Positions 9,823 through 63,508 of a DNA stretch of 64,000 nucleotides are shown here, one piece after another. The notes beneath the pieces were generated by a model. That model was not told the origin of the DNA, made no database searches, and worked only from the letters and a program-made list of their open reading frames with translations. Position 1 is the first letter of the stretch; each line of letters starts with the position of its first letter. Position numbers and translations under genes: made by a program. The stretch is from the sequence record PZ445429.1, one strand, 5' to 3'. The DNA is from a phage.

Positions 9823-10298
9823 TGTCGGTTTTCCACATATATACAGATGGTGCATGTAAAGGCAATCCTGGTTTAGGTGCGTGGGGATTCGTTGTCTATA
9901 ATGATAATGATGATCGTATTGGCTCTAAATCTGGCTTCAGCCCTAAAACTACTAATAACGAAATGGAACTTACTGCAATTGTAGAAGTTCTTCGTTGGTC
10001 TACTAAGAAAGATAATCGTCCAGTAATTATCTACACTGATTCTGCTTACTGCAAAAATGGTATGGAAAGCTGGATGTGGTCTTGGCAGAAGAAAGGCTGG
10101 AAGAAGGGAGATGGTGAAACTCCTCTTAATCTAGAACTCTGGCAAGAAGCATTTAAACTAACTCAACAGTATATTAACTTCCATGATACCAATCCAACCT
10201 TTGTTAAGGTTAAAGGTCACTCAGGTATTCGTGGTAATGAAGAAGTTGATGCTCTATGCAATACTGTAATTACTGAGCAAGAACTTGCTGAGATGTAA
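9822..10298 (+). CDS. rnhA: ribonuclease H
   Basis: YTDGACKGNPGLGAWG ... TNNEMELTAIVEVL ... YTDSAYCKNGM ... VKGHSGIRGNEEVDAL matches RNase HI catalytic DEDD pattern; start at ATG 9822 after RBS GGAG. Confidence 0.85.
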   Translation: MSVFHIYTDGACKGNPGLGAWGFVVYNDNDDRIGSKSGFSPKTTNNEMELTAIVEVLRWSTKKDNRPVIIYTDSAYCKNGMESWMWSWQKKGWKKGDGETPLNLELWQEAFKLTQQYINFHDTNPTFVKVKGHSGIRGNEEVDALCNTVITEQELAEM

Positions 10299-10318
10299 TA
10301 AATAATTTAAAAATTCAC

Positions 10319-10347
10319 TTGCTTAAAGCCCTCGAATTTAGTATAAT
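10319..10347 (+). promoter_or_regulatory. early promoter TTGCTT-N17-TATAAT
   Basis: AAAAATTCACTTGCTT ... GTATAATAT. Confidence 0.65.
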
Positions 10348-10374
10348 ATTCGTATTGAAAGTGAGGAGGGCTTT

Positions 10375-10653
10375 ATGCGAATTTACAACTCAAATTCATT
10401 AGGATTTAAACCTTTGAGAAAACGCGCACAATCTCCGCGTCAGATCAGAAAGGCAAATATTGGTGAGCCAGAAACTAGGCTTCCACCACCTCCGGAGCAG
10501 CGTCTAGTTTATCTAGATGAAGAATTAGCCGAAAGGGAACGCAAAGCTCAAGAAGAAATTGAGCGCAAGAAACTGTGTACTGCTCCTGCATATAACAAGG
10601 GTGGTTATCAGTACGTTTCCAGTGAGGAACAAGCTAAGATGATCGGCAGATAA
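10375..10653 (+). CDS. hypothetical protein (92 aa)
   Basis: promoter 10319-10347, RBS GGAGG. Confidence 0.5.
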   Translation: MRIYNSNSLGFKPLRKRAQSPRQIRKANIGEPETRLPPPPEQRLVYLDEELAERERKAQEEIERKKLCTAPAYNKGGYQYVSSEEQAKMIGR

Positions 10654-10669
10654 TTTTTAAAAAATTCAT

Positions 10670-15885: not shown

Positions 15886-16513
15886 TAATAGTGGGGTGCC
15901 GAAACCACTTATGTAACAACACTGCCGTCCTAGTATAATAGGTATTATTAGGGCTTCACCGCCTGAAGATGTGGGTTCGAGTCCCACGGTCGGAAAGAGT
16001 TGGATAACTGGTGCTTCTAATGGCGAAGCAATCGCAGGCAGTTGCGCACTGCCAAAACCACGCGGTAGTTGGTTCCAGGCTAACCAACCACTCTTGAAAA
16101 GTATATACTATGGTTTTGCTTGTTCAAGAAGCTTCGCATCGAAAATCGGAGGTGCGATTTTATCCGACCGCGTGGAGGACGTCTCTCCGTTAAGTGACGA
16201 AAAGTGGGACGATTCAGGTAGAGCTGGATATGGAACACCTATACATATGCGGAGTGCGCACAAAGCATATTGCGGTGGTACTAAACGAAATTAGGAGTCA
16301 TGACCTGCACAAGTTTAGTATGTCATAACCGATGTACATTCAGTACAAAAACCACTGAAGCTAAGATAGATAGTCACCTTGACTTAAACTGGAAGATATT
16401 GTCTGACGGAAGGGCTGCAGAGCTTAATCTGAGGGGGCTGACCCTACCTACCGTCGGGTATCTTTAAGAGCTTTTATAAGAGTTCTTAAAAATACCTAAC
16501 AAAAGGAATCAAT
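15886..16513 (+). ncRNA. ~630-nt ORF-poor GC-richer segment with tRNA-like T-arm and hairpins (candidate structured RNA)
   Basis: GUGGG-UUCGAGU-CCCAC T-arm at ~15971-15988, hairpin GGCAGUUGCGCACUGCC, long-range complementarity GGUCGG(15990)/CCGACC(16166); only a low-quality 107-aa ORF. Confidence 0.25.
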
Positions 16514-47191: not shown

Positions 47192-47424
47192 TGGAAATTG
47201 TAGCAAGCGTCTTAGTAGTTATGTTATTCATAGTAATACTTGTATCTTTCGTTATTATGCGTAGAGCCAGAGAATTAGCAGAGGATCTAACAAAGTTACG
47301 TGGCGAGGTGGCTACTCTTAAACTACAGCGTGAATCTCTCAAGCTATTCGTGGCTCAAGGTAGCCTAGAGCATGCACCAGAAGACTTCATCGTATATCTT
47401 AAACGTTACATGGGAATCAAATAA
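47191..47424 (+). CDS. membrane protein (77 aa)
   Basis: N-terminal TM helix. Confidence 0.4.
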   Translation: MEIVASVLVVMLFIVILVSFVIMRRARELAEDLTKLRGEVATLKLQRESLKLFVAQGSLEHAPEDFIVYLKRYMGIK

Positions 47425-47609
47425 TGGAAACATTACTTCTTATATTACTAGGCGTGTCACTCCTGACAATCCTGGGGCTGATACTGATTTGCAGTCGCCT
47501 TAACGTTAAGAATCTAGAATTAAATAGTGAAAATGAAATTCTTAACCGAGAAATTAAACAACATAATATCGCAGCTCGTAAGCTGTTAGATAAACTGGAG
47601 AATAGATAA
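47424..47609 (+). CDS. membrane protein (61 aa)
   Basis: N-terminal TM helix. Confidence 0.4.
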   Translation: METLLLILLGVSLLTILGLILICSRLNVKNLELNSENEILNREIKQHNIAARKLLDKLENR

Positions 47610-48220
47610 TGTTTACACAACAAACCATTAAAGTAGTAGCAGATCATGAACTCGACACATGGGATTACAGCTTTAAAGATCTGACTGCTACAGTACAGTT
47701 TAAATCTATGCAACTGTCGTTTTTGCACACTGATCTTCAAGGTTGCAAGGAATTTCAGGCTAAGCTCATGAATGCTCGTGCTATCTTTGGCACGGCTCGT
47801 ATCCCGGCTGATAATCTGATTAATACACTAATCGATGCTGGATACAAACTCGTGAAGACTGAGGTGAATCGCCCTAGTACTCCAGTGACTATTCGGGATC
47901 CGTGGCAGTCAGGGCCAATCGCAATGCTGAATAATTCTGATAAAAGATTAATGTCGGATATGCACAATGTTCCTTGTGGTGGCGTGGTAAGCAATACGCA
48001 ATCATATAAGTTTGGGGAAGCATCTAGCGTAGACGAGTGGAATAAAGCTGGCGTTGCAATGATGGGCTTTGCAAAAGATCGCGGAGCACAAGAAGACTCC
48101 GGAGTTTCTAGGAACTCATACACAATTCGTTTGAGCAATCCTAGCAAAGAAGGTGAGCTTGAAGAAATGTTAACGAAAGTATTCGAAGCTATTGATGCAG
48201 ATAAGGCTAGAGGTCGTTAA
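47609..48220 (+). CDS. hypothetical protein (203 aa)
   Basis: coupled ORF. Confidence 0.5.
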   Translation: MFTQQTIKVVADHELDTWDYSFKDLTATVQFKSMQLSFLHTDLQGCKEFQAKLMNARAIFGTARIPADNLINTLIDAGYKLVKTEVNRPSTPVTIRDPWQSGPIAMLNNSDKRLMSDMHNVPCGGVVSNTQSYKFGEASSVDEWNKAGVAMMGFAKDRGAQEDSGVSRNSYTIRLSNPSKEGELEEMLTKVFEAIDADKARGR

Positions 48221-49110
48221 TGGGATTTTATAGTAATAGAAAGCCGAAAGGTGTAGTTGGTAAATTCGCGGTGGAAGAGAGACCTTTTCCACCGGTCGAT
48301 GTAGAGAAACTACGTGAACTTCTAGAAATGCTAGAAGGTTGCCATGAACGTTGTTACTCTGAGCTTTCTTTAAACGAGAAACGTGTTGTTGAGATGTTCT
48401 GTATTCGGTCAGCTAGAACAGTTAGAGGTACTTCTCCAAAAGATGAAGTAAAAGAGTACAGAGTTCTTGTGATGCATGCTTGGGCACAACGTTTTGCAGT
48501 TCATTCACTTCAGGAATGGTTTAATCTTCCAGCATATAAAGATTTCCATGTTTATGAAGATGAAGTTATGAATTATAATGAGTTGTACGGTTTGTCATTT
48601 AAAAAGACAGGCTCACCAATGCATGATGCACTCAACTCATTCCCTGATCATTATCTTCCAGTTCGTGAATACAGAGATCGTGAAGGAAATAAACCTTGCT
48701 TCACTATATGGAATAAGTCTAAGACAATATCTGATCTAGATAATTATTGGTTCCGCACAAAAGAAGGATTCCTAGGAACAGAACCTTTACCTAAGGATCT
48801 CAAGCCTATCCTTCCACCTGTGAAACCTAAGCATGAAGTAACGATTGCTATTAATAGAATAATTCTAGGAGCAGATGATCTTACCAAACAAATCGCCGCA
48901 GTTATTGCAGTTCTGTTTGAAGGTACAAAATCTTCTACACGTTATGAGAAGCTAACTGATAACAAATTGCAGATACCTAACGAGTTGTACGAGAGTTCAT
49001 GTAAGATCTATGATAACTTCAGTAAAGTAGATTACCCTGTGAGATCCCTAGGAGAACTCATGGAGTATGCGGAGATGGGGATGAAAGGAAACCTCATGTT
49101 CGATGAATAA
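48220..49110 (+). CDS. hypothetical protein (296 aa); last early-region gene before repeat field
   Basis: coupled ORF, ATGA overlap with previous. Confidence 0.5.
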   Translation: MGFYSNRKPKGVVGKFAVEERPFPPVDVEKLRELLEMLEGCHERCYSELSLNEKRVVEMFCIRSARTVRGTSPKDEVKEYRVLVMHAWAQRFAVHSLQEWFNLPAYKDFHVYEDEVMNYNELYGLSFKKTGSPMHDALNSFPDHYLPVREYRDREGNKPCFTIWNKSKTISDLDNYWFRTKEGFLGTEPLPKDLKPILPPVKPKHEVTIAINRIILGADDLTKQIAAVIAVLFEGTKSSTRYEKLTDNKLQIPNELYESSCKIYDNFSKVDYPVRSLGELMEYAEMGMKGNLMFDE

Positions 49111-49117
49111 ACTCTAC

Positions 49118-49146
49118 TTGACGTTATGATTTCTGCATGTTATAAT
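49118..49146 (+). promoter_or_regulatory. strong sigma70-type promoter TTGACG-N17-TATAAT with no ORF downstream
   Basis: near-consensus hexamers; next 1.5 kb has no credible ORF. Confidence 0.5.
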
Positions 49147-49505
49147 AACTCTATGAAATAACATAGAATAAAGAGATCCACCCGGATACGGATGGTGGAT
49201 GGGAAACTTCTATTTCCCCCGTAGCTCGTCGGAGGGCTAGGGAAATCTTCAGAAGTTTTGTACCATCTCACGCAATTCGTATCCCAGGGGTGGAACATCT
49301 CTCACAATCCTTGAGGATCTTATACTTAAATTAAAGTTAAAACTTTTGACCACATAATTCACATTCAAGATGATACACTTGTTGCCGCCGCTCTTCCTAG
49401 GATGGCACAACACTTTCTAGTAGACTCCTAAGTTTCTAGGAAAACCCTGTCGTATTTGCCCATGTTATAGGGCAGTTTCTCCTGTTCCTAGAAACTCCAG
49501 CAATA

Positions 49506-49577
49506 GGCGGTTTAATACAGGGCGGTTTAATACAGGGCGGTTTAATACAGGGCGGTTATGGGGAGGGCGGTTATTTC
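49506..49577. repeat. 15-bp tandem direct repeat GGGCGGTTTAATACA x3 plus degenerate copies
   Basis: three exact head-to-tail copies followed by GGGCGGTTATG and GGGAGGGCGGTTAT. Confidence 0.8.
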
Positions 49578-49615
49578 TAGACAACATTTTTCCAAAACAC
49601 ATTTCTGGATTTTAC

Positions 49616-50217
49616 TGTCGGATTTGCACACTATGTTTCTAGAAATTTATGGTCGGATTTGCACATTGATAGGAGTCTCCAAAGTTTTTAGGAACACTGA
49701 AAATAGCAGCATTATTTCGGGCCGAAGGCCCGTATTTGCCTGAGTTTTTAGAGCCACAGGAATTTTCACTTGTCAAGCGATTTTGCCCCATTTTGCTAAT
49801 AAAATTTCGCTTTATCTCCACTAATCTCAATTCTAGCCAAAACATCCCACATTATCCCCAAAAACGCAGCAAACCGGTGCTGAAGCACCACCACAGCTGC
49901 ACCCTCCATAGTTCCTCCAAAAAACCTCGTCGGATTCGCACTTCTCCCCAAACTCACACAATCATACACCCTCTCATCGAAGTCACAAAAATCTTGTCGG
50001 TTTTGCACACCTTAACACTTGTCGTATTTGCACATATTCTAGTAAATCCAGCTGGATTGCATCGCAGTTGTGGATTGCTGGAGTTTTTAGGAAAATTCAT
50101 TGTCGGATTCGCACATATAAAAAATATTTCCCATCGGATTTGCACACTACCAAAAATTGTCGGATTCGCACATGCACACTGGCACGTAATCCGTGGGGGC
50201 AAATGTCGGATTTGCAC
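49616..50217. repeat. iteron array: at least 9 dispersed copies of TGTCGGATT(T/C)GCACA
   Basis: copies near 49616, 49651, 49926, 49994, 50019, 50101, 50132, 50158, 50203, mostly same orientation, irregular spacing. Confidence 0.75.
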
Positions 50218-50259
50218 AAAAGCGCAGGGCAAAAATGAAAATGCCCTGCCTGCCGAAAT

Positions 50260-50440
50260 GCGAATGATAATGAGATTGATTAGCATTTGAGAAGTTGAAT
50301 GCGAATGAGAATGATTCGCGTTTAGAAAGAGGAATGAGAATGGTTATCATTTAGAAAGCGGAATGAGAACAGTTATCATTTATAGAGTTGAATGCGAATG
50401 AGTCGCATAATGAGAATGATTCGCGTTTAGAAATGGAAGT
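50260..50440. repeat. GAATGAGAATG-type direct repeat family
   Basis: TTGAATGCGAATGAG...AATGATTCGCGTTTAGAAA twice and GGAATGAGAA(T/C)(G/A)GTTATCATTTA twice. Confidence 0.7.
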
Positions 50441-50460
50441 GAGAAACACTGTTATTTAAG

Positions 50461-50543
50461 TTATCAACAGGTTTATTAACAGCACGATTTGACTTGACAA
50501 AATCCTAGCGATTTTGAGGCGTTATCAACAGACTTATTAACAG
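50461..50543. promoter_or_regulatory. cluster of four DnaA-box-like 9-mers
   Basis: TTATCAACA x2 and TTATTAACA x2 (1-2 mismatches to TTATCCACA). Confidence 0.4.
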
Positions 50544-50550
50544 GTTATTC

Positions 50551-50570
50551 TACTGTATAAATATACAGTA
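50551..50570. promoter_or_regulatory. LexA (SOS) box, near-consensus
   Basis: TACTGTATAAATATACAGTA (consensus TACTGTATATATATACAGTA, 1 mismatch). Confidence 0.55.
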
Positions 50571-50599
50571 TTCCTATACAGTGAATAATTCTAATATAG

Positions 50600-50630
50600 C
50601 TCTAAAACGCTCTGTAACGCATCCTAACGC
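50600..50630. repeat. 31-bp direct-repeat motif TCTAAAACGCTCTGTAACGCAT(C/T)CTAA(C/G)CGC, copy 1
   Basis: second copy at 54886-54916, both preceded by TTATTAACAGG. Confidence 0.6.
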
Positions 50631-50715
50631 GTTTATTTTTGGAGGAGGTATTTTAATAAGGGGAAATTTGTTTGCAGGCAGAAAAGGCGGGGCCGATAGT
50701 TGCGCCCCGTTATTA

Positions 50716-50955
50716 TTAGTCTGCTATGTATTCCTTCTCGTAGTCGTCAAAGATCTGGACGGTTTCGGCTGGCGTATATCCGTATGAATCAAAATGCGTA
50801 CATGTTGAAACTGAATTGATCCACGCCCCTAGCGCCGCCGTACTAGCTCCGCTTTTCTGCATTTCTAAAAATTGCGCATATTGCGCATCAGTTAAATGAT
50901 GCTGCATAATATCGGTTTCTTTACGTTCTACATATCGTAAAATTCTTACAGCCAT
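50716..50955 (-). CDS. pre-early cassette protein (79 aa)
   Basis: minus-strand ORF with RBS AGGAG; last gene of IR-bracketed cassette. Confidence 0.45.
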   Translation of the reverse strand: MAVRILRYVERKETDIMQHHLTDAQYAQFLEMQKSGASTAALGAWINSVSTCTHFDSYGYTPAETVQIFDDYEKEYIAD

Positions 50956-51078
50956 GCCATTGCTCCTAGAATGAGAATGATTATCAATATCATTGTAAAG
51001 CCATTACCAAATCGTAAACGCTGGGAATGTTTCCCAGCGGTATTATTAGATTTATGGCTTTGTGTTTTTCGCCACCAG

Positions 51079-51279
51079 CTATTCACGGTAAACGCTCCAA
51101 CCGTCTAGCTTCCATTCCTCCCCCTTGCGAATATTGAAAAACCAATCATTAAAATTGTAACCATCTTCCGACATGATCACGCCGTTTTCTTTCATGTACA
51201 AAAATTCATCGCTAGTAAAATATTGATTACTAACTTTGAAACCTTGTTTCATTTTTTCTAACGCTTCATCTTTAGTCAT
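51079..51279 (-). CDS. pre-early cassette protein (66 aa)
   Basis: minus-strand ORF, coupled to upstream gene. Confidence 0.45.
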   Translation of the reverse strand: MTKDEALEKMKQGFKVSNQYFTSDEFLYMKENGVIMSEDGYNFNDWFFNIRKGEEWKLDGWSVYRE

Positions 51280-51620
51280 TGCGCCACCTTTCGAAACGCT
51301 GTTTCGATACTTTCAGCGGTTGATTGAATATATGCGCCTTTCATAATCAGGCGCTCTGTACATACTTTGCGGAAAATGTCAATAAATTCATTTTCATTTT
51401 CTGCTACTAATGGCTCACCCATAACCTGTACATCACATGCGCCAAAAGTAAGAAACTGGAAGGCAAGCTCGCGAGCAACAACGGCATTAATCTTATAATG
51501 TGCTTTGCCTTCATAGATATTAACCACGCCTTTATAAACTGGTGAAAGCTGATTTAAATAGCTTGCTAATAATGCCGGACGGCAATTAGTAACAAAACGA
51601 TTACCCTCGTATATAACCAT
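51276..51620 (-). CDS. pre-early cassette protein (114 aa)
   Basis: minus-strand ORF with RBS. Confidence 0.5.
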   Translation of the reverse strand: MVIYEGNRFVTNCRPALLASYLNQLSPVYKGVVNIYEGKAHYKINAVVARELAFQFLTFGACDVQVMGEPLVAENENEFIDIFRKVCTERLIMKGAYIQSTAESIETAFRKVAQ

Positions 51621-51729
51621 TTGTCAAGCTCCTAAAGCTGGGAAAATATCAGGTACATTTTTAAAACAAATGCAGCGAATGAGCAAACAACGCCAACGGT
51701 AGCAAACGCTAGAGCAATATATAAGGATC

Positions 51730-51948
51730 TCATAATACCCCCCGAAAAGCAGCGTAAAAGGTGGCAAAGTGTTTAACCGTTTCGGCTACCAAATTTCCGC
51801 GCTTGTCAAATTTCTTTTCAGTAACACGAAACGCGTTTTTGTTGCGTGCTACATATTCGATTTTACAATCTGGACGCTCAAACGTGTTAACATCCACCAG
51901 CTTAAAACCTTTAGAACGGGCAAGGGAAACATTCTTTAACATTTGCAT
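51730..51948 (-). CDS. pre-early cassette protein (~72 aa)
   Basis: start set at ATG after RBS AGGAG (track ORF 51730-52035 overlaps neighbour). Confidence 0.4.
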   Translation of the reverse strand: MQMLKNVSLARSKGFKLVDVNTFERPDCKIEYVARNKNAFRVTEKKFDKRGNLVAETVKHFATFYAAFRGVL

Positions 51949-51995
51949 GACTCCTAGTAAGGGAATGAGGGGCGAAAGTAACGCCCCGTTATTAT

Positions 51996-52226
51996 TTACA
52001 TTAAAACAATTTTCGCCGCTTGCTTTTTGGTGCAATGTTCTGATTTCAACGTGTCCAGCAAAAATCCGGCGGTTTGCTGGTCAATCTTATCATTATCATA
52101 AAGCGCCTGAATGGTAACATAAGTTTTACCAATCCCAAATTCAGAAACCATCTGATCAATAATCCAGCGATTAGACACCCAACCTTTACCAGTGAAAAGA
52201 GAGTCAGAAGAAGAGAAAGCAACCAT
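51996..52226 (-). CDS. pre-early cassette protein (76 aa)
   Basis: minus-strand ORF with RBS GGAGG. Confidence 0.45.
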   Translation of the reverse strand: MVAFSSSDSLFTGKGWVSNRWIIDQMVSEFGIGKTYVTIQALYDNDKIDQQTAGFLLDTLKSEHCTKKQAAKIVLM

Positions 52227-52333
52227 TTTAACGCCTCCTAGAAATCAGGGAAAATTTTCAATCCACCGTTTCGGTGTAAAGGCATTATAACAAAAAAGGC
52301 CGCCGATTAAGGCGACCTTTACAAAACTTTACA

Positions 52334-52828
52334 TTAGACTATTTCTAATGCTTCCACGCCGAAACAGCGTTTTAGTTCTTTCTGTAAAACGGCATATTCA
52401 CCCCAACGGGAATTATCAGGAATATAAACAAGCTGTTTTAATCGATTTGCATATAATAACGCCTTGTTACCAACTATTTCCGCGCCACCGTGTTTAATAA
52501 TTAGTTTCATAACGGTATTAATAGGATCGCCGCCATTTACATAAGTACCGGACTTACTCAATTGATAATGATAAAGACTCGCATATACATTATCATTTTC
52601 AATCCATTCCCCTGTTTCTTCATTTTCTTCCCCATCGCTACCGAAACGAGAAGCATTATCATATGCGTGTTCGTTTGCGAAAGCGTCCAGATCACAGCCA
52701 GCGGGAACAAAATGTTCTTCCGTCCAGCCCTCCCCACAATAGCCAGTATGACAATCAACTAAAACGATCATATCGTGTTTAGCTTCATTCACACTTTCTA
52801 GCGAAAAGCCATATTTTTCTTCTGACAT
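52334..52828 (-). CDS. pre-early cassette acidic protein (164 aa)
   Basis: minus-strand ORF with RBS GGAGACTAATTATG. Confidence 0.5.
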   Translation of the reverse strand: MSEEKYGFSLESVNEAKHDMIVLVDCHTGYCGEGWTEEHFVPAGCDLDAFANEHAYDNASRFGSDGEENEETGEWIENDNVYASLYHYQLSKSGTYVNGGDPINTVMKLIIKHGGAEIVGNKALLYANRLKQLVYIPDNSRWGEYAVLQKELKRCFGVEALEIV

Positions 52829-52841
52829 AATTAGTCTCCTA

Positions 52842-53150
52842 TTAATTAGTAGGGAAATAAAGAGAATTTGCTACACCGTAAAATCCTTTATTCAAGAAAA
52901 TTACGTCATCACGGACTATTTCATCCATTCCATAATCCAGCAAAGTTTCATCTACAAAAATACATAGCCAGCCATAACCACGATCAAAGAAAGCATGATA
53001 ATTATTCGCGCTTTCTACATGTTCCCATAAAAAGGGACGCCCTTGCTTTTCCCATATAGGAATATTGCTTTGATCGTCCGAATAATTAACATGTGGGCTA
53101 TTCGGCATTTTTTCGGCTAATTGCGCTAACATGATTTGATTTAGTTGCAT
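52842..53150 (-). CDS. pre-early cassette protein (102 aa)
   Basis: minus-strand ORF with RBS AGGAGACTAG. Confidence 0.5.
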   Translation of the reverse strand: MQLNQIMLAQLAEKMPNSPHVNYSDDQSNIPIWEKQGRPFLWEHVESANNYHAFFDRGYGWLCIFVDETLLDYGMDEIVRDDVIFLNKGFYGVANSLYFPTN

Positions 53151-53188
53151 AATAACTAGTCTCCTAACAATTAACAGGGAAATAGTAA

Positions 53189-53208
53189 AGCGGGGAATAA
53201 TCCCCGCT
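53189..53208. terminator. palindrome AGCGGGGAATAATCCCCGCT (family of three) downstream of minus-strand gene
   Basis: perfect GC-rich inverted repeat after stop of 53217-54212. Confidence 0.5.
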
Positions 53209-53216
53209 AGTAATTA

Positions 53217-54212
53217 TTACTCTGTTTCGGCGCTTTGAGTAAAGGTAGAAATGTCAATGCCTTTTACCATTTCATCGATCATTTCCGCAATGTTGAAACT
53301 CTGTACCATTTCCAACATTGCCGCTTCCATTGCCGCGCCTGCTACCGCTTTAGCTTTCGCATTAGTCGGGGCGTACTGGTCAACCGCTACGCTTAACAGG
53401 TTAGCGATCACTACGCGACCGATCGGCGTATCGATATAACCTTTAATCATAAACGGCGCTTTTTTCGCCGCTACTTTTGTGATTTGAATCAGTGCAATTT
53501 TACCCGCTTCCAATTTAGCAGCGTTTACAACGGCGGATTTATTAGCGGCAACGATAGAAGATACTTTAGACATAATATTTCCTTTATTTTCAGTAGTTTG
53601 CGCATTTGCGCTTGAAGTTTGAGATTGTACAGCCTGTTTTGTTACATTGTCAAGCGGTAAAAGTGTAAATCCAGCGTTTGCAACGTTTGATTCATTCCCA
53701 TACTCTAAATAATCGTTAGGGATCAACATGTTACCGCTAGCGCGTTCAAAACACAATACGCCAGTTGTTTCGATTGCGTCACTATCAGCACCTTTATAAC
53801 TGGATGATAATTCACGCCAGATACTAGATAGTAAATCTTCTACATCGCTGGAATTAATACCATTTACGCGAGTAGCGAAAACCATTTCTTTTTCTTGTAC
53901 ATTGTAACCACGGGCAATATAGCTTTTTTCGTCGTGACCTACAATGATAAAATCAATATCGCTTCCCCGCTGATTTCGCATGATGTGATAGTCACGGTTG
54001 TAAAGCACTAGAACGCGGGTAGGGTCTAGTAATTGTGTGAAATCACTTAAACAATAATGAGTATCATTATTATCTAAAATTTCATCGTGAATCTTTTCGA
54101 TAATAGTAGCCGTATGTTGTACGCTTGCCGCACTACTACCATCTAGCAGGTTGCGCAAACTACCCTTAATAATAGTGGCGTTTGCTGGTACTGCAATTCT
54201 TACAGTAGACAT
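53217..54212 (-). CDS. pre-early cassette protein (331 aa), first gene of minus-strand operon
   Basis: RBS GAGGGGGACAAAGAAATG; palindromic terminator downstream at 53189-53208. Confidence 0.55.
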   Translation of the reverse strand: MSTVRIAVPANATIIKGSLRNLLDGSSAASVQHTATIIEKIHDEILDNNDTHYCLSDFTQLLDPTRVLVLYNRDYHIMRNQRGSDIDFIIVGHDEKSYIARGYNVQEKEMVFATRVNGINSSDVEDLLSSIWRELSSSYKGADSDAIETTGVLCFERASGNMLIPNDYLEYGNESNVANAGFTLLPLDNVTKQAVQSQTSSANAQTTENKGNIMSKVSSIVAANKSAVVNAAKLEAGKIALIQITKVAAKKAPFMIKGYIDTPIGRVVIANLLSVAVDQYAPTNAKAKAVAGAAMEAAMLEMVQSFNIAEMIDEMVKGIDISTFTQSAETE

Positions 54213-54460
54213 TTCTTTGTCCCCCTCGTTAATCGGTGAGTGAATGATATAGATAATTGTTCGCTAGGGGCAAGAAAAAAGAAAAGGTTTTTTATTCCTT
54301 GCCTACTGCCTGTTTTTATGATAGCCGCGCGTTTTCTATTTCTAGCTCTCTGTATGCGTACACAAGGCTTTATTATAATAAGGGTAGCAGCGAGAAAACC
54401 GTTTAGAATGCGTTCTAGGCCGCTTAAATTTGATTGCGGTTGTTACTGCTACCATTCTAC

Positions 54461-54480
54461 CCTGTATATTTATACAGTAG
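54461..54480. promoter_or_regulatory. LexA (SOS) box
   Basis: CCTGTATATTTATACAGTAG, CTGT-N8-ACAG core; ~250 bp upstream of minus-strand operon start 54212. Confidence 0.5.
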
Positions 54481-54487
54481 GATAACC

Positions 54488-54569
54488 TGTGAATAAGTCT
54501 GTGGATAAGTCGCCAAAACGTCGCCTATTGCGTCAAGTTATTTTGTGCTGTGGATAACTTTGTGAATAA
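54488..54569. promoter_or_regulatory. cluster of four DnaA-box-like 9-mers
   Basis: TGTGGATAA x2 (perfect complement of TTATCCACA) and TGTGAATAA x2. Confidence 0.5.
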
Positions 54570-54885
54570 CCTAAATGATAGTGGTTCTCACTTAGCCGAT
54601 AGTTTCTTATAGTTATTATTTCTCTTTAATTTATAAGTATATAATATAATATGAAATAGTTAGTTGGCTAATAGGTTTTTAGAGTATTAATAGTCTGCTA
54701 ACTGTTTCGGCTGTTACAATCCACCAGCGTGATTATTATCCTAGCGATTGTTAGTATGCTAACCAATCAATGCACGTCTAAACTTATTTGTCAATGAAAA
54801 ATAACAGCAGAAAATACTTTTTTGAAAAATCAAGTGGATAACTCATTAAATTTCATTTTTGCTTTTTGTATAAGTTATTAACAGG

Positions 54886-54916
54886 GTCTAAAACGCTCTG
54901 TAACGCATTCTAAGCG
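54886..54916. repeat. 31-bp direct-repeat motif, copy 2
   Basis: see copy 1. Confidence 0.6.
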
Positions 54917-55303
54917 CCTCAAAGGAAAAGATAGGCAATCATAAGGGGTACACCGAGAAAACCTCACCACGAGGATTTTAGATTTTGTCAAGTACCCTAG
55001 AGCAGATATAAATGAAAAAATTACTTGCTAAAATGGTTGTTTTGGTGTTATTCGCGCGCCCGTTTCATTAAATTTAGTGCGCCGCTGGACGTGGTGCGGT
55101 GGCGTTTGTCTTTACGTTTCTTTACAAAAATACGCTTGCGCCATTTTCGGGAATAACCTATTATTTATCTCGTAGGACGGCAAGACGGAAACGAAAGGCC
55201 AGACTACAACGGCGGGGAAGTTTACCGCCATGCTCTTTAAAAACTAGGGAACATCTTAAAGCCTATCGGCGGTAAACTTATATAATATAAGGAATCGACG
55301 ATA

Positions 55304-55522
55304 ATGATCAAATCAAAAAACGCTTTAGTGATTAGTGCGAAACCTGCTAGCGCATTAGATAGCAGAACAAAAAATTTGTTGACAGTAGCGCAAAGATCTG
55401 TAAAATACAGATTCAAGCAATACAAGAAAGGCAAGCAACAAGGGCTGGAAATGGTGTGGCGTAATATAATGATTGATTTATATAACTCACATCAAATCGA
55501 AAAAAGTTTAAAAAACGCTTGA
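55304..55522 (+). CDS. small basic protein (72 aa)
   Basis: RBS AAGGAATCGACGATAATG. Confidence 0.4.
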   Translation: MIKSKNALVISAKPASALDSRTKNLLTVAQRSVKYRFKQYKKGKQQGLEMVWRNIMIDLYNSHQIEKSLKNA

Positions 55523-55686
55523 CACGCTAGCCGATAGGTTTTAAGATGTTCCCCGTAGTAACTGCTCTTTAAAAATTTGGATAACGGTAATGTTTAGGCT
55601 AACTCCTAGCGGATTATAATCTAATAGCGTTTCAAAGTATCGAGGCGCTATTGTGGAATAATCCCCAATAAACCGGAGTATTAAAA

Positions 55687-55938
55687 ATGCAAAACGTTAT
55701 TACCGCGCCGAAAGTAGGTCAATCTGTTTTCATTCCTTTTGTAACTAAAACTGATGAATTAACCGGAAAAGCCGAACGTATCAAAGGTGCGGCGCTTGAT
55801 CCTTTCGATAAAATCGAAGCGGTTTACGCGGAAACGGAACGTAGCAACAACGGCAAGCCGATTTATACCGTCCGTGTTAAATCTGGCGACGTTGTAAAGG
55901 TCATTCAGAAAGATGATAAATGGCAAGCTATCGCCTAA
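55687..55938 (+). CDS. hypothetical protein (83 aa)
   Basis: RBS ACCGGAGTATTAAAAATG. Confidence 0.45.
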   Translation: MQNVITAPKVGQSVFIPFVTKTDELTGKAERIKGAALDPFDKIEAVYAETERSNNGKPIYTVRVKSGDVVKVIQKDDKWQAIA

Positions 55939-56163
55939 TAGCTTATTATTAACCCGCGCCTTTAATCGGCGTAAATAAATAAGGCTAGCGCCTCATGTTA
56001 GATTTTCGATATATTAACCATGTAGTGTGAACAATGTTATGGCACACAATTTAAACTTATATGATTAGTGTTACTTTTATATTCCCCTGAAATATGGGGA
56101 ATATATGGATTAACATTAGTTAATCATAATCCCTTAATTAATAATTGAATGGAGTATTAAATT

Positions 56164-56580
56164 ATGTCTAACGTTAAAACCGAAAAAACCGCAAAATTTT
56201 CTTGGAACGAAGAAAACACCGAAAAAGCTGTTTCTATGTATTCTGAAATGGTCGCTAAAAGCGGGATTGAATTTGCAAACAGTGACGGCCTGAAAGAAAT
56301 TGCCGCCGCCGTTGGTGCTGCTAGTCCGGTGTCTGTACGTTCTAAATTGACCAGTGCAAAAGCCTACCAGAAAAGCGACAAGCCGCGTAAAGTTGGCGGC
56401 GGGTCTAGTGTCCGTAAAGCTCACTATGTGCGCGTCATTGCTAAACATGCCATTGATAGCGGCATTGTAAAAGACGCTGACGATCTGGCAAGTCTGGAAA
56501 GTGCAAAACTTGAAACGCTGGAAGCCGTGGCGCAATTGTTAGGCGTAGCGGAGGAAGTGAAACAGGCCGCAGGTGAATAA
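56164..56580 (+). CDS. hypothetical protein (138 aa)
   Basis: RBS GGAGTATTAAATTATG; palindrome terminator 56590-56609. Confidence 0.5.
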   Translation: MSNVKTEKTAKFSWNEENTEKAVSMYSEMVAKSGIEFANSDGLKEIAAAVGAASPVSVRSKLTSAKAYQKSDKPRKVGGGSSVRKAHYVRVIAKHAIDSGIVKDADDLASLESAKLETLEAVAQLLGVAEEVKQAAGE

Positions 56581-56589
56581 ATTTTAATT

Positions 56590-56609
56590 AGCGGGGAATA
56601 TTCCCCGCT
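56590..56609. terminator. palindrome AGCGGGGAATATTCCCCGCT
   Basis: 10 bp after stop of 56164-56580. Confidence 0.5.
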
Positions 56610-56638
56610 ATAATTTCCCTTTGACCGGAGTTATTAAA

Positions 56639-56866
56639 ATGATTTTCTTTCCTAGTGAAGCGTTTATTTTAGGTTTATTTATAGTTGCCGCTATATTTAT
56701 ATTTAATTACGGCAAATATATAATCTCTATTATCGGCATTAATTCAGCTTATGCCGCTGATATGTTTAAACGTCAAGCTAATAAACAAAAATATCTGGCG
56801 ATTATATTTTTAACGCTGGCTATTAGTTGCGGGTTTAGTTCTAGTCTTATGCCAATTCTAGAATAA
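56639..56866 (+). CDS. small membrane protein (75 aa)
   Basis: ATG 56639 after RBS CCGGAGTTATTAAAATG; two TM helices. Confidence 0.4.
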   Translation: MIFFPSEAFILGLFIVAAIFIFNYGKYIISIIGINSAYAADMFKRQANKQKYLAIIFLTLAISCGFSSSLMPILE

Positions 56867-56974
56867 TATTGCAAATTATAACGCCTTTTAAATTGTCCTC
56901 ACTTCAGGCAAGGCGTTATATTTGGCAATATTGCCAGTATTAATATTTATCCCTTTATAGGAGTTGATTTAGTT

Positions 56975-58639
56975 ATGAATATTTCCGCAGAAAAACAAGC
57001 TCAAATTCTGAAAATGGCCGCAGATTTTAACTTCTACGGTAAGCGTTTACGCGCTACTAAATTGGAAGTTTGCGACGATATTTCAAAAGCTGTTTATGAT
57101 ACGCCGAAACATTCAACCGCAATTTGTGACTGGCTGGAAGCAAATAAGCCAGCGAAACCGAAAGCGGCAAAAGCTGAAAAGGCGATTAAAAATGATGATC
57201 GCCCCGAAGCGGCGGGAATTGTTTCTAGTACCGTTGAACAATGGGAAGTTAAATCCGGTCGCCGTTTTATTCTAACGTCGATTCAAAATAATACTTTCCC
57301 GCATAAAAACTTTTTAGCAAGTCTGGAAAAATTCGCTGAATATTGCGGCGCTGAATTGCTGATTAGTAAATTCATTTATAATAAAAATGGATTCCAGAAC
57401 GGGGAAGGGGCAAACGGTATTAAATACGATCCCGCATTTGATAAATATGTTTGTGATAAAAACGTATTTTTAAATAACCGCCGCTTTGCTTTCATGGCTG
57501 AAATTAACGTTTTACCAACGGCAGATTATCCGCTTTCAGGATTCGCAGAAACCGCCACGGCTTTAAATATCGAAGGTCTGGCAATTGGTCACGCAAAAAT
57601 TACCGCTGAAAGTGTTCCCGCGCTTAAAGGTGAAGTAGTGCGCCGTATGTATTCAACCGGAACGGCTACGCTTAAAAACTACATTCAGCAGAAAGCAGGT
57701 CAAAAAGCTGAGGCTTTACATAATTACGGCGCTTTGCTGGTGGAGTTCGACGACGACGGAGAATTTTATTGCCGCCAGCTTGAAACAATGGATGAAAGCG
57801 GAATGTTCTATGATTTGAATGTTTGCGCTATGCCTACCGGATGTTTTGAAACGTCCGATCATGTTCTAGGCTTGCAATATGGCGATATTCACGCCGAAAA
57901 ACTAGATGATGATTGCGCCGTCGCTTCATGGGCTAGTGAAAACAGCTTGCTTGATATTCTTAAACCGAAATATCAATTTATTCATGATGTGCATGATTTT
58001 ACATCCCGCAATCACCATAACCGCGCAAGTGGTGTATTCCTTGCTAAACAATACGCCGCCGGACGTGATAAAGTTATTGATGATCTTATCGATACGGGTC
58101 GCGTATTAGAGTCTATGGAGCGTGATTTCTCTCAAACAATCATTGTGGAATCTAACCATGATTTAGCTCTTTCACGCTGGCTTGATGATCGTAACGCTAA
58201 CATTAAAGATGATCCCGCAAACGCGGAATTGTATCACCGTCTAAACGCTGCGATTTACGCCGCTATTGCTGAAAAGGATGATACCTTTAACGTGCTAGAT
58301 TACGCCTTGCGGAACGTCGCAGGTTGTGAATTTAACGCTATTTTCCTGACTACTGACCAATCATTTAAAATCGCTGGCATTGAATGCGGCGTACATGGTC
58401 ACAATGGCATTAACGGCAGTCGGGGCAATCCTAAGCAGTTTAAAAAGTTGGGACGCCTTAACACTGGTCACACTCACACGGCTAGCATTTACGGCGGCGT
58501 TTATACCGCTGGCGTTGCTGGTAGTCTCGATATGGGTTACAACGTTGGCGCGTCAAGCTGGACGCAAACGCATTTAATTACATATGCAAACGGTCAACGT
58601 ACCTTGATTGATTTCAAAAATGGCAAATTCTTTGCCTAA
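56975..58639 (+). CDS. A1: A1-like pre-early protein with calcineurin-type metallophosphoesterase/nuclease motifs
   Basis: 554 aa (T5 A1 is ~556 aa); GDIHAEKLD, ESNHDL, GHNG, GHTHTA motifs; followed by A2-like and dmp-like genes. Confidence 0.55.
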   Translation: MNISAEKQAQILKMAADFNFYGKRLRATKLEVCDDISKAVYDTPKHSTAICDWLEANKPAKPKAAKAEKAIKNDDRPEAAGIVSSTVEQWEVKSGRRFILTSIQNNTFPHKNFLASLEKFAEYCGAELLISKFIYNKNGFQNGEGANGIKYDPAFDKYVCDKNVFLNNRRFAFMAEINVLPTADYPLSGFAETATALNIEGLAIGHAKITAESVPALKGEVVRRMYSTGTATLKNYIQQKAGQKAEALHNYGALLVEFDDDGEFYCRQLETMDESGMFYDLNVCAMPTGCFETSDHVLGLQYGDIHAEKLDDDCAVASWASENSLLDILKPKYQFIHDVHDFTSRNHHNRASGVFLAKQYAAGRDKVIDDLIDTGRVLESMERDFSQTIIVESNHDLALSRWLDDRNANIKDDPANAELYHRLNAAIYAAIAEKDDTFNVLDYALRNVAGCEFNAIFLTTDQSFKIAGIECGVHGHNGINGSRGNPKQFKKLGRLNTGHTHTASIYGGVYTAGVAGSLDMGYNVGASSWTQTHLITYANGQRTLIDFKNGKFFA

Positions 58640-58651
58640 TTAAATTTAATC

Positions 58652-58671
58652 AGCGGGGAATATTCCCCGCT
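58652..58671. terminator. palindrome AGCGGGGAATATTCCCCGCT
   Basis: 13 bp after stop of A1-like gene. Confidence 0.5.
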
Positions 58672-58714
58672 TATATTCCCGAAAAAGTTAATTAAATAAT
58701 CTGGAGTTTTAAAC

Positions 58715-59107
58715 ATGAAAAACCAAAACATTCCTTTTGATCGCGCTACTTCTTCCATCGTTCTAGTTTATTCTAATGGCGAGCGTTATCACGTTGAATC
58801 GGGTCATATTATTGATGAACTGCTAGACTTTAACGAGGCGCTACAGGTAACAACATTTGCATATATTACCGGTAAAGCGTCAAGCCATACAAAAGCAAAA
58901 GGCGTTTATATTGATACCGTAAAAGAGCAAACTGTTATTATTGACGCTGTAAAATCAGGTCTAGCGTTTGCAGTTGTCGCGCCATGCCCCGCTTGCCTTG
59001 ATAATGCTCTTATGTCTGCAAAGGTCTACACTTGCGCGGGGATTCGTTCCAGCGTATCAGGTGAGGATATTAGTTTTATCGCTGATGCTCTTGCTTTTGG
59101 TCTTTAA
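58715..59107 (+). CDS. A2-like pre-early protein (130 aa)
   Basis: size and position downstream of A1-like gene; hairpin terminator 59121-59147. Confidence 0.3.
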   Translation: MKNQNIPFDRATSSIVLVYSNGERYHVESGHIIDELLDFNEALQVTTFAYITGKASSHTKAKGVYIDTVKEQTVIIDAVKSGLAFAVVAPCPACLDNALMSAKVYTCAGIRSSVSGEDISFIADALAFGL

Positions 59108-59120
59108 TAGCTAACTTATT

Positions 59121-59147
59121 ATTGCCCGCTTATAAATAGCGGGCAAT
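59121..59147 (+). terminator. hairpin terminator after A2-like gene
   Basis: ATTGCCCGCT-TATAAAT-AGCGGGCAAT. Confidence 0.55.
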
Positions 59148-59186
59148 GCTGAATTAACTATACCCTTAAATGGAGAACGTAACAAA

Positions 59187-59921
59187 ATGAATCAAGTTAA
59201 AATGAATATTACCCATAATTTCCCGCATATTTCCCGCGTCATGATTTGGGATCTGGACGGCACAATCATTAATTCTTTCCATCGTGTAGCGCCTTGCTTT
59301 GATGATAACGGGAATTTAAATTTAAATAAGTATTCCCGCGAAGCCTGTAAACATGAATTAATTATGCAGGATTCTTTATTGCCGTTGGTTGAATATATGC
59401 GCCAATGTATGAGTGACGCAAATACATTAAACATTATTTGTACCGCTCGCCTTATGTCTAAAAGCGATTATTTTTATTTACGCAAACAAGGCCTGCGAGG
59501 GCGCGGAAATAGTAATATCCGCGTATTTTCCCGCGATACACTGCATAAATACTTTGAAGCTGATAAGGTTAGCGAAATATACCACAGCAAAGACGCTGTA
59601 TACAAAAGCTATTACTTTGAACTATTTAAACAGCTATATCCGAACGCTGATTTTACGATGATTGATGATCATAAAGGCGTATTATCGGCGGCGGCAAGTG
59701 CTGGGTTCAAAACACTGGACGCCCAAGCCGTTAACGATATCCTATCAATCGGCGTAGCATTGATCGGTGAAACCTTTATTGATGAATCGTTAGATGATGA
59801 TAATGATTATCAATTCCTAGCCGAACGTTTAAAAATGTGTTGGGAAGGTATGACCGAGGAAGAACGCGCGGAATATAGTACCACACCGCAACAATTCATT
59901 GATAAATTAAAAGTTGCATAA
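59187..59921 (+). CDS. dmp: HAD-family 5'-deoxyribonucleotidase (dmp-like)
   Basis: 244 aa; HAD motif I MIWDLDGTIINS; later DD motif. Confidence 0.55.
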   Translation: MNQVKMNITHNFPHISRVMIWDLDGTIINSFHRVAPCFDDNGNLNLNKYSREACKHELIMQDSLLPLVEYMRQCMSDANTLNIICTARLMSKSDYFYLRKQGLRGRGNSNIRVFSRDTLHKYFEADKVSEIYHSKDAVYKSYYFELFKQLYPNADFTMIDDHKGVLSAAASAGFKTLDAQAVNDILSIGVALIGETFIDESLDDDNDYQFLAERLKMCWEGMTEEERAEYSTTPQQFIDKLKVA

Positions 59922-59938
59922 CAATTAAAAATAAAATA

Positions 59939-59976
59939 GTTTCATCCTGTAATTAAAAAATGGTTACAGGATGAAA
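59939..59976. terminator. bidirectional hairpin between dmp-like (+) and HNH (-)
   Basis: TTTCATCCTGTAA-TTAAAAAATGG-TTACAGGATGAAA. Confidence 0.6.
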
Positions 59977-60094
59977 CAGTTAGCATGGTAATAGTAACAC
60001 AGGGGGATTATTAGACTACTAACTATCCCCAGTCCCACTGAGCACATCTGCATGTGTAATCTTATGAAATTTCAAGATTTTCAAATTAGCGCTA

Positions 60095-60568
60095 TTAACC
60101 GTGGTTTGTGAACTCACCACATACTTTCTCACGTGCTTCCCTTATCGCACTTTCAGCTTCCTCAAGACTCTCGAAATAGGCCGAGATAAAATATTTGCCT
60201 TGGTGTCTACCGCGTGCTCTCCACTTCTTACGAGTGTTATCCCAGTATACTCCCTTAACTCCCGAGATATTGTTCTTAGATAGACGCTGATTCGCTAAGT
60301 TCTGCTCATGTGATGCTTTACGAAGATTATTCTTTCTATTATCTAGTCCCTCACAGTTTTTATGGTCTATGAGAGATTCTCCGGGATCTTCTCCGTAGAT
60401 GCACCACCAAGCTAGGCGATGCACTCTAAACTCTCCGAACTGTGGGTGACGATATATGAGATAACCTTCACTTTCCTTAGTATATCCTATAATAGGCAGG
60501 AATCGCCCCGTATCTGGATCGTATGAAAAACTACCAGCTATTTCATCAGGGATTTTCTTAAATATCAT
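60095..60568 (-). CDS. HNH homing endonuclease
   Basis: HRLAWWCIYGEDPGESLIDHKNCEGLDNRKNNLR ... GVKGVYW, paralogous to the 15403 HNH. Confidence 0.7.
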   Translation of the reverse strand: MIFKKIPDEIAGSFSYDPDTGRFLPIIGYTKESEGYLIYRHPQFGEFRVHRLAWWCIYGEDPGESLIDHKNCEGLDNRKNNLRKASHEQNLANQRLSKNNISGVKGVYWDNTRKKWRARGRHQGKYFISAYFESLEEAESAIREAREKVCGEFTNHG

Positions 60569-60810
60569 GAACTTCTCCTATCTACTGGCTTATCTCCCGA
60601 TTCTGACATACGAAACCTCCTCCGCGACGCCCGAGATCCATCAGACCATTCTCGCTCAAACTCCGCACGTTTCTCCGCAAACTTCCGCTCTCTTTCCGAA
60701 AGCTCTCGCGATACTCCCGCAATATATTCACGATGCTTATTAATCGCCCCGAGTGTTCCGAAGATTCCCGCAAGTACCCCGATAATGAAGATAGCTACAA
60801 AACTAAACAT
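60565..60810 (-). CDS. small membrane protein (81 aa)
   Basis: N-terminal TM helix, basic tail. Confidence 0.4.
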   Translation of the reverse strand: MFSFVAIFIIGVLAGIFGTLGAINKHREYIAGVSRELSERERKFAEKRAEFEREWSDGSRASRRRFRMSESGDKPVDRRSS

Positions 60811-61376: not shown

Positions 61377-61643
61377 TTACAAGTGACCAGATTGTTCTAG
61401 TTTAAATTTGCAATCACCATATTTGAGATCAAACTGTGACAAATCCCACCACCCAAACTTAGTGCGTAACTGAGTTTTAGGGAATCGGTAGCCCACAGTA
61501 CGTGCTTCTCTAATATCTAAAGCGTAGTGTTCTTCACCAACATGTCCATAAGACTTCACGTATGCCTTACAGAATGGCTCGGGAGCTGGTACACAACCAG
61601 TCAACACTACTGCTGCAACTACGATAGCTAGTAACTTTTTCAT
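61377..61643 (-). CDS. llp: Llp-like lipoprotein (receptor-blocking lytic-conversion lipoprotein, putative)
   Basis: 88 aa, signal peptide with lipobox LTGC; divergent from adjacent receptor-binding protein gene as for T5 llp/oad. Confidence 0.5.
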   Translation of the reverse strand: MKKLLAIVVAAVVLTGCVPAPEPFCKAYVKSYGHVGEEHYALDIREARTVGYRFPKTQLRTKFGWWDLSQFDLKYGDCKFKLEQSGHL

Positions 61644-61726: not shown

Positions 61727-63508
61727 ATGAGTTTTTTCGCAGGAAAATTTAGTGATGGTAAAACTGTATTATCTCTAAACGCTGCTAATGGTGGTGATAC
61801 TGGTGAGCACTATTCTCCAAATACTAATAGTATCTTCCACTCCGATATGCCTTTCGTCCTGGTTGATGGGACTTATGAAGCAGCCCTAGGTAATGCAGGT
61901 AATGGATACTTTGTTACTCAGATGCCTTGGGATATTATAAATATTAAATCCAATGATCCAGGTAGAGTTATATTAACTGCTATTGAGATAAACGGTACTC
62001 ATAGAGGATTCCTCAATGGTACTCAATCTCAGGTTGGCCAGTTCTTATCATTTTTTGAAGACCCACCACGTGCTGGTGCTGAATTATCTGTAACATCTGC
62101 TTTTGCGATCGGGGATAGTTTAGCTCATGGTACTTATATCTATAATGGTGGTCTTGGTCATGAGGAATCTATTGCTAGGCAAGGTTCTGGAGGCAGTTTA
62201 CTACAGTCCTCTGGTTTCCAGATCTTTAGACCTGGTGGTGTTCCTGCTGGTGAAGCCATTGCCAGAGCCTGGAGTCTTATGGGTTTTCCAACTGGTGTCT
62301 CTACTGTTCCTTTAAATGGTGGTAACGCTGATTATTGGGATCCTAACTGGCAGGCGCCTATTGGTTCTGCTGGTAGAGGCCATGATTGGTTTTATGTTTG
62401 TAGTTCTAATATTCGTGGCTTCGCAGGTAAAAAAGGCGTACTACCAGATAACGTAAACATTAACTACCAATCCCCCTCCTTTCCTACTAAAGTATACGTT
62501 TGCAGGGGTTCTACAACTAATATGGCTGCGCAAGCCACTAGAAAGGTATATGTACAGGACTGGTACAACGTTACGCCAACTAAGGTTATTTGGTATGTAC
62601 TAAATCTGCGCTATTCTAATGGTAGTATGGGAGTTTCTGGTAATCCATTTACCGGTTCAGATATCTTAATATCTCCATCTAACTTTACTATTAAAGGTGT
62701 TAGCCTACCAAATACAGGCTATAAATTTATTAACCAGAATGCTTTCGGAAACTTAGGCTATCGCCCTGATATGGAGTATGTTGGTAATAACGCTGCGTAT
62801 ACCGGAGTTTTTGGTGATAATACTGCACGATGTGAATTTATCGGCTCTAGTAATGGCGGATTGTGGTCTCCTGTTAACTATGGGGGTGCAGCTTCTCAAA
62901 TTAGCTTATATAAATTTGGTGTAGGTAAACAATGGTATGTAGATACTAATACCAACTCCATTGGTAATGAACATGGACCTGTATGGAGTCCTAGTACTGT
63001 ACCCCTCAGGTTATTCCCAGGCAACGTTGCAAGTACTTATGTAGGGGATGATATAACTCCATCCTACCCTGGTGCTGGTGACTTCTACACACCTTTGGCC
63101 ACAGTTTGGTTGGGATTACCAAATGCTCACTCTACTGTTATATTAACTACTGAAGTTATTATGGGTAATCTTAATACTGCTGGAATGCCCGTGCGTACTT
63201 ATGGTGGTAGTGCTTGGCAGGTACAAGGTAGACGTCAACAAAGTTATACAGCTGGTGATGGTGTATTCCATCAGATTCTTACTCTGCCACCTGGCTATCT
63301 AGTACCATATCACAGTACAACTTCCTATAGCTATACCCAAACGTGGGCTAGTAGGCCTGATGAGTTTGCTTTCCGTAGGAACGGATATATTTATACTATT
63401 AAAAACCTTGGTAATGGCAACGTTGAATTGGGTGTTATCATTCACGCTGCGGAAGCGGCGGCTGTTTTCTTGCCAAGACTACGTGTAACAGTTCAACGCC
63501 TAACCTAA
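61727..63508 (+). CDS. receptor-binding tail protein (pb5/Oad-like, putative)
   Basis: 593 aa Gly/Asn/Ser/Thr/Tyr-rich beta-type protein adjacent to llp-like gene; RBS AAGGAG. Confidence 0.45.

Follow-up and report, generated by a model that had tools for sequence, protein, structure and literature searches.

A single copy of a T5-like terminal repeat lies in mid-sequence in phage record PZ445429.1, probably as a result of merged end copies

A stretch of 64,000 nucleotides (nt) from the phage sequence record PZ445429.1, in the following called the window, was analyzed with respect to a module of pre-early genes that lies in its right half. Judged by its sequence, the window belongs to a T5-like phage of the Demerecviridae, and the nearest relatives are Epseptimavirus phages of Salmonella. 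Its orientation is the reverse of the T5 convention. The early genes and a cluster of 28 tRNA genes on the + strand (15.9-31.6 kb) are located left of the module. On its right side homologs of T5.162 and T5.159, an llp-like gene, a gene for a pb5-type receptor-binding protein, and the gene for the small terminase subunit (TerS) were found. Genes were identified by tblastn with T5 proteins against the window. The features of the module are the following, with lengths in amino acids (aa) or base pairs (bp):

49751-60044, about 10,294 bp: putative collapsed long direct terminal repeat, the first-step-transfer/pre-early module, mapped with the boundaries of four references
49751-50700: non-coding region with repeats, similar to the injection stop signal (iss); aligns to T5 9287-10219, within the annotated iss at 9140-10149
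50437-50568: inverted-repeat arm 1, equivalent of T5 IRD'spacerIRC'; 132 nt, 77% complementary, matches T5 9411-9542
51276-51620, - strand: T5.015 homolog, 114 aa, 86% aa identity to T5.015
53189-53208: likely palindromic terminator, copy 1, downstream of the T5.011 homolog
53217-54212, - strand: T5.011 homolog, 331 aa, 55% identity; Pfam DUF7566 (E=1e-136)
54462-54593: inverted-repeat arm 2, equivalent of T5 IRCspacerIRD; 132 nt, in the divergent promoter region between two pre-early transcription units
56164-56580, + strand: A2, open reading frame (ORF) of 138 aa, 88% identity to T5 A2 (match 56185-56577)
56590-56609: likely palindromic terminator, copy 2, downstream of A2
56621-56866, + strand: T5.005 homolog, small membrane protein, 44% identity; called "A1 precursor" in some records
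56975-58639, + strand: A1, 554 aa, 90% aa identity to T5 A1
58652-58671: likely palindromic terminator, copy 3, downstream of A1
58715-59107, + strand: T5.002 homolog, 130 aa, 82% identity to T5.002
59187-59921, + strand: dmp, deoxynucleoside-5'-monophosphatase, 244 aa, 90% identical to its T5 counterpart; no other gene lies between it and the terminus

The gene order of T5 was found to be kept. The homologs of dmp, T5.002, A1, T5.005, A2, T5.007, and T5.008 had aa identities of 44-90%, and with the exceptions of T5.005 and T5.008 the values were 80-90%. The segment of about 10 kb therefore contains dmp, A1, and A2 in conserved order and orientation, and they read toward the terminus, which is reached 123 nt after the end of dmp. 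The original prediction, which had been made from the sequence alone, had named an A1-like protein of 554 aa, an A2-like protein of 130 aa, and a dmp-like gene. A1 and dmp were confirmed as homologs of the T5 genes, and the more general labels given to them in the prediction, metallophosphoesterase for A1 and HAD nucleotidase for dmp, are putative. The ORF of 130 aa turned out to be the T5.002 homolog and has no similarity to A2; the true A2 gene is located at 56164-56580. The A2 gene is also annotated as A2 in the phages Stitch, Sepoy, and SIY1lw, and in precomputed Pfam labels the corresponding gene of 138 aa on the related Logan contig L007 carries PF26822 (Phage_T5_A2). On related contig sequence, PF26880 (Phage_T5_dNMPase) was found on the gene that corresponds to dmp, and PF26847 (Phage_T5_AP_Endonuclease) on the gene of 114 aa that corresponds to the T5.015 homolog. 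T5 gene 015 has been described as an Ung-dependent nickase (2026 preprint), and the product of 51276-51620 is related to it. A scan with a local copy of Pfam that does not include the T5-specific PF268xx families gave no match for A1, A2, the T5.002 homolog, dmp, and pb5, and A1 had no match among the PDB sequences either. The C-terminal half of A1 contains the motif-like strings GDIH (303), HDVHD (337), SNHD, and GHTH (498), which are metallophosphatase-like and occur in the expected order; they were compared with the metal-binding motifs DxH, GDxxD, GNH[DE], and GHxH of calcineurin-like metallophosphoesterases. T5 A1 has been called a "putative metallo-phosphatase" (2026 preprint). The DNA identity of a Logan contig that codes for exactly the same A1 protein was only 87-97%.

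The edges of the module were localized by carrying the boundaries of four repeat-annotated reference genomes onto the window via BLAST alignments. The references were T5 (NC_005859; repeat of 10,219 bp, copies at 1-10219 and 111532-121750), Stitch (KM236244; repeat of 9,982 bp, determined with the PAUSE method on raw reads, right copy from 113494), Sepoy (MK728825; repeat of 10,295 bp, read-derived with PhageTerm), and SIY1lw (PP105779; annotated repeat of 10,101 bp). The inner boundary was found at 49751 with T5, Sepoy, and SIY1lw, and at 49746 with Stitch, i.e., the spread was at most 5 nt. The agreement was even closer for the terminus, which was found at 60042 with Sepoy, at 60043 with Stitch and SIY1lw, and at 60044 with T5, a spread of at most 2 nt. 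Position 60044 is the equivalent of the left terminus of the virion DNA and of the start of the right copy; the inner end of the left copy and the right terminus of the virion DNA are both represented by position 49751. An alignment to the left terminal repeat of T5 had been proposed earlier as a check; it placed the boundary at 49751, and the homology of A1, A2, and dmp amounted to 88-90%. The block had originally been delimited as 49111-60600. This interval indeed holds the repeat and both mapped edges, but it extends beyond the repeat by about 640 bp on the left side and by about 560 bp on the right side, and the true ends, which had been expected somewhere within it, are more exactly the edges of the repeat.

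Both junctions of the module with the neighboring unique DNA were then compared with the references. The alignment with SIY1lw is unbroken over 47424-52859, from the early genes into the repeat, and the alignment with T5 crosses the inner end of its left copy over 49306-50692. The junctions of the right copies, from the late side into the repeat, were also unbroken, both with Stitch (60099-59040) and with T5 (60092-59077). The window is thus collinear with T5, Stitch, Sepoy, and SIY1lw at two inner junctions: that of the left copy, which leads from the repeat to the early genes, and that of the right copy, which leads from the late genes (llp, pb5, terminase) to the repeat. Only one copy lies between them. 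In a terminated linear genome of the T5 type, each copy is bordered by unique DNA on one side only, i.e., by the early genes in the case of the left copy and by the end of the late region in the case of the right copy. A single copy with both junctions is therefore indicative of a collapsed or circularized representation, or of a record that was opened at an arbitrary point, because this arrangement is impossible in a linear virion genome with correct ends.

The same topology was found in the databases. The block 49111-60600 was matched by 545 phage records, mostly of T5-like phages of Salmonella, Escherichia, and Klebsiella, with identities of up to 94.9%. Records of about 123-125 kb contain the block twice, records of about 108-114 kb contain it once and often in mid-record. 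An independent Logan contig also has the single-copy topology. According to the PhageTerm paper, assemblers set the first base of phages with terminal repeats randomly, and the coverage of the repeat is doubled. In the case of Stitch the assembly gave a single contig, and the repeat was annotated afterwards from the raw reads.

Taken together, the region 49751-60044 is very probably (about 93%) the sole retained copy of a direct terminal repeat of about 10.3 kb of a T5-like phage, which would lie in mid-sequence because the assembly merged the two identical copies at the ends. The prediction that the terminal repeats had been merged in a circle-like assembly is thus supported by the continuity across both junctions and by the mapping of the boundaries. 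The segment would occur at both ends of the linear virion genome, the read assembler would merge the identical copies into a circle-like contig with an arbitrary start, and the repeat would thereby have the early genes on one side and the end of the late region (llp, pb5, terminase) on the other. The genome would then physically end at the two edges of the repeat, with the conventional left end at about 60044 and the conventional right end at about 49751. By homology to the references, the virion DNA of this phage is expected to be cut exactly at 49751 and 60044 and to carry the repeat twice.

The non-coding region at the inner end of the repeat has the anatomy of an injection stop region. Seven GTCGGWTTYGCAC direct repeats were found in all. 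Five of them lie inside the repeat (49929-50205), and the array overruns its edge by about 130 nt into unique DNA, where two copies of the GTCGGATTTGCAC repeat are located in the spacer (49617 and 49652). An overrun of the repeat region from the left copy into unique DNA has also been described by Davison (bioRxiv 10.1101/866236). Tandem repeats of 29-35 nt (GAATGAGAATG.TTATCATTTAGAAAG) follow at 50262-50400, and the major nick of T5 has its homologous position at about 50222. Arm 1 of the inverted repeat contains two pairs of DnaA boxes, all four of them non-consensus (TTATCAACA and TTATTAACA), with a spacing of 3 nt. Arm 2 contains four consensus DnaA boxes, which are also paired 3 nt apart (TTATCCACA and TTATTCACA). 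The two arms thus hold 8 of the 22 DnaA-box-like matches of the whole window. Such an arrangement of an inverted repeat with paired DnaA boxes has been described for 25 T5-like phages (bioRxiv 10.1101/866236). The module has an untranslated region at its inner end, the inverted repeats, the eight paired DnaA boxes, and the arrays of direct repeats. The iss anatomy including the eight DnaA boxes is canonical, and the inverted repeat as well as the GTCGGATTTGCAC repeats match the published iss description.

In T5 the first-step-transfer DNA is formed by the repeat at the leading end, A1 and A2 are essential for the second-step transfer, A1 is required for the degradation of host DNA, and dmp dephosphorylates the released deoxynucleoside monophosphates (dNMPs). 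By analogy, the first-step-transfer segment of the phage studied here would enter the cell first, stall at the repeat-rich injection stop region, and have its pre-early genes expressed. A1 and A2 would then be needed for the second-step transfer and A1 for the degradation of the host DNA, and dmp would dephosphorylate the dNMPs that are released.

Several observations weigh against the interpretation as a merged terminal repeat or against the exact positions of its ends. About 80 nt just inside the terminus are variable among the relatives, and in the window they are closer to T5 than to Stitch, so that the exact cut could lie a few nucleotides away. The local context also differs from that of the references, since an HNH gene has been inserted on the outer side of the terminus, at a distance of 51 bp. 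In addition, the duplication and the exact positions of the cuts are deduced from homology. The sequence could also represent a real molecule, i.e., a junction in a replicative concatemer or in a circular intermediate, in which neighboring units share one repeat before the terminase cuts and the repeat is duplicated. The order early genes, repeat, late genes is exactly what a concatemer or circle would have if each unit contained one repeat, and models of T5 replication invoke circularization and concatemers (bioRxiv 10.1101/866236). However, phage genomes are normally sequenced from virion DNA, for which collapse is the routine cause of this topology, and this origin is regarded as unlikely. 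The same sequence would be expected in both cases, and the nature of the element would not be changed. A much smaller probability still was assigned to the view that the terminal redundancy was lost or that packaging is by the headful mechanism, so that the block would in fact occur only once, at an internal position of a circularly permuted genome. The small terminase subunit shares 94% identity with its T5 counterpart (tblastn), both boundary regions are conserved with phages that have read-determined repeats, and the iss apparatus, which makes sense only at the leading end of a genome, is intact.

The last alternative to be considered was that the block is a horizontally acquired, compositionally foreign, GC-rich island. 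A switch to a higher content of guanine and cytosine (GC) and to a different codon usage had been part of the original argument, together with a distinct style of palindromic terminators. The palindromes are real and are indeed confined to the block, which speaks for such an island. In contrast, the GC content of 50500-60600 was 39.6%, compared to 39.9% left of the block, and the repeat is in the middle of the distribution of 10.3 kb windows, 54% of which are at least as GC-rich. The codon usage also did not differ: the median GC content at third codon positions (GC3) was 0.330 for the repeat genes and 0.329 for 62 ORFs on the early side (Mann-Whitney p=0.64). The GC and codon shift was thus rejected, based on the GC distribution of the 10.3 kb windows and on the GC3 values of the single genes, and these data also refute a foreign, GC-rich island. 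Moreover, the block is syntenic with, and 76-95% identical to, a module in hundreds of T5-like phages, and a foreign origin is hardly credible. The compositional argument was wrong, though the interpretation drawn from it, a merged terminal repeat, is supported.

The palindrome AGCGGGGAATATTCCCCGCT occurs three times in the window, at 53189 (with one mismatch), 56590, and 58652; none would be expected by chance, and all three are inside the repeat. A terminator is annotated at the site after A2 in Stitch and in Sepoy. The three near-identical hairpins of 20 nt are likely the terminators of three pre-early genes. Exact copies of the palindrome are absent from T5 and were found twice in Stitch and once in Sepoy, and this distribution suggests a local homogenization of terminators in this lineage.

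The regions on both sides of the repeat contain the following features:

48220-49110: last early gene, T5.018 homolog
49111-49750: unique non-coding spacer between the last early gene and the repeat; aligns to T5 10220-10666, outside the left copy; not part of the repeat
60045-60600, - strand: unique late-side DNA, adjacent to the repeat but no part of it; aligned with T5 and Stitch DNA that lies upstream of the right-copy start
60095-60568, - strand: HNH_3+AP2 homing-endonuclease ORF, 157 aa; Pfam HNH_3 (E=8e-8); 51 bp outside the terminus
61377-61643, - strand: llp-like gene; 96% DNA identity to a Stitch region with a "receptor-blocking protein" gene, and a weak lipoprotein signal
61727-63508: pb5-like receptor-binding gene, 30% identical to T5 pb5

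The repeat is thus flanked by homologs of T5.018 and T5.019 on one side and by homologs of T5.162, T5.159, and pb5, the llp-like gene, and TerS on the other side, and the boundaries are the same as in the relatives. The location of the pre-early block between the early genes and the genes for llp and the receptor-binding protein had been predicted correctly. The spacer contains a 15-nt tandem repeat, GGCGGTTTAATACAG, in 3.5 copies (49506-49557) and the hairpin GGGCCGAAGGCCC (49718-49732). The HNH_3+AP2 ORF is not present at this site in T5 or Stitch and takes the place of a short ORF of Stitch; it was also found in some relatives, e.g., S114, and in a Logan contig.

Both edges of the repeat are flanked by unusually conserved non-coding DNA (49690-49810 and 60034-60096). 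An island of 121 nt across the inner boundary, which includes the GGGCCGAAGGCCC hairpin, was found in 507 phage records, in 438 of them with at least 90% identity. For comparison, a neighboring non-coding stretch of 121 nt was found in 210 records, in 121 of them with at least 90% identity. The island at the inner boundary is 92-93% identical to T5, while the average of the surrounding region is 76%. A second copy of this island was present in only about 59 of the 507 records. At the terminus, the match was limited in most of 338 records to about 50 nt just outside the repeat, i.e., to the conserved flank 60045-60096. A comparison of the two repeat edges by eye revealed no common motif. It is conceivable, though rather doubtful at present, that the conserved islands are cis-acting signals with which the terminase of the T5 family cuts concatemers and regenerates the repeat. 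To our knowledge, such signals have not yet been defined for this family. If the islands do have this role, the terminase signals could be delimited by a comparison of the window with its hundreds of relatives.

Three additional observations concern variable or unusual sites. At about 58690, between A1 and the T5.002 homolog, a small ORF of the T5.003 type is missing; compared with Stitch, Sepoy, SIY1lw, and T5, the window is shorter by about 270 bp at this site. A segment of 125 bp (55939-56064) is missing from Sepoy and SIY1lw; on reading it proved to be merely a variable intergenic promoter region upstream of A2, and it was not regarded as special. The first gene of the tRNA cluster (15923-15996) was called by ARAGORN as a tRNA of 74 nt with the anticodon TCA, labeled SeC, and it may be a UGA-reading tRNA.

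The repeat module is an already known, ordinary feature combined with an artefact of representation; each of its parts has a counterpart in T5 or a relative, and it does not involve new biology. The value of the result is mainly practical, and the assignment of A2 was also corrected. Annotators should re-open the genome at about 60044 (reverse strand) and append the repeat of 10.3 kb, and the true virion genome would be about 10.3 kb longer than the assembly.

A comparison with T5 (NC_005859) revealed the same order of elements, i.e., dmp, T5.002, A1, T5.005, A2, T5.007, T5.008, the divergent promoters, T5.011, T5.012, T5.014, T5.015, and the iss. The A1, A2, and dmp proteins are 88-90% identical, and inverted repeats of 131/132 nt with DnaA boxes are present in both phages. 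They also share both boundaries and the flanks, i.e., T5.018/T5.019 versus T5.162, T5.159, and a pb5 homolog, with the llp-like gene in the position of T5 llp. In contrast, the DNA identity is only 70-88%, homologs of hegG, T5.003, T5.013, T5.016, and T5.017 were not found in the window by tblastn, extra ORFs are present at 52334-52828 and 52842-53150, and the window holds only one copy of the repeat. A homolog of T5 llp was also not detected in the window by tblastn. The missing llp similarity and the identity of only 30% for pb5 suggest that the receptor specificity is different.

The similarity to Stitch, Sepoy, and SIY1lw is higher, with 84-96% DNA identity over most of the block and boundaries that agree within 5 nt. 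The 28 tRNA genes equal the number that has been reported for Stitch. In contrast to these three phages, the window has no small ORF in the interval from A1 to the T5.002 homolog, and the terminal 80 nt or so and the dmp region are more diverged (85-86%). Unlike the window, Stitch has no HNH gene just outside the terminus.

The best match to 49111-59940 was MG065642, which is labeled "Campylobacter phage A148", but is a T5-like phage of the Salmonella/E. coli type, and several "Listeria" records also match the block. The "Campylobacter" and "Listeria" labels are probably mislabeled hosts or contaminants in the records. None of the phages A148 (MG065642), INF11 (PV692321), and OSY-STA (MN187969) is identical to the window, and the best identity over the block is 94.9%. 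Nevertheless, all three genomes, with sizes of about 111-114 kb, contain the repeat once and in mid-record, and thus have the same collapsed representation as the window.

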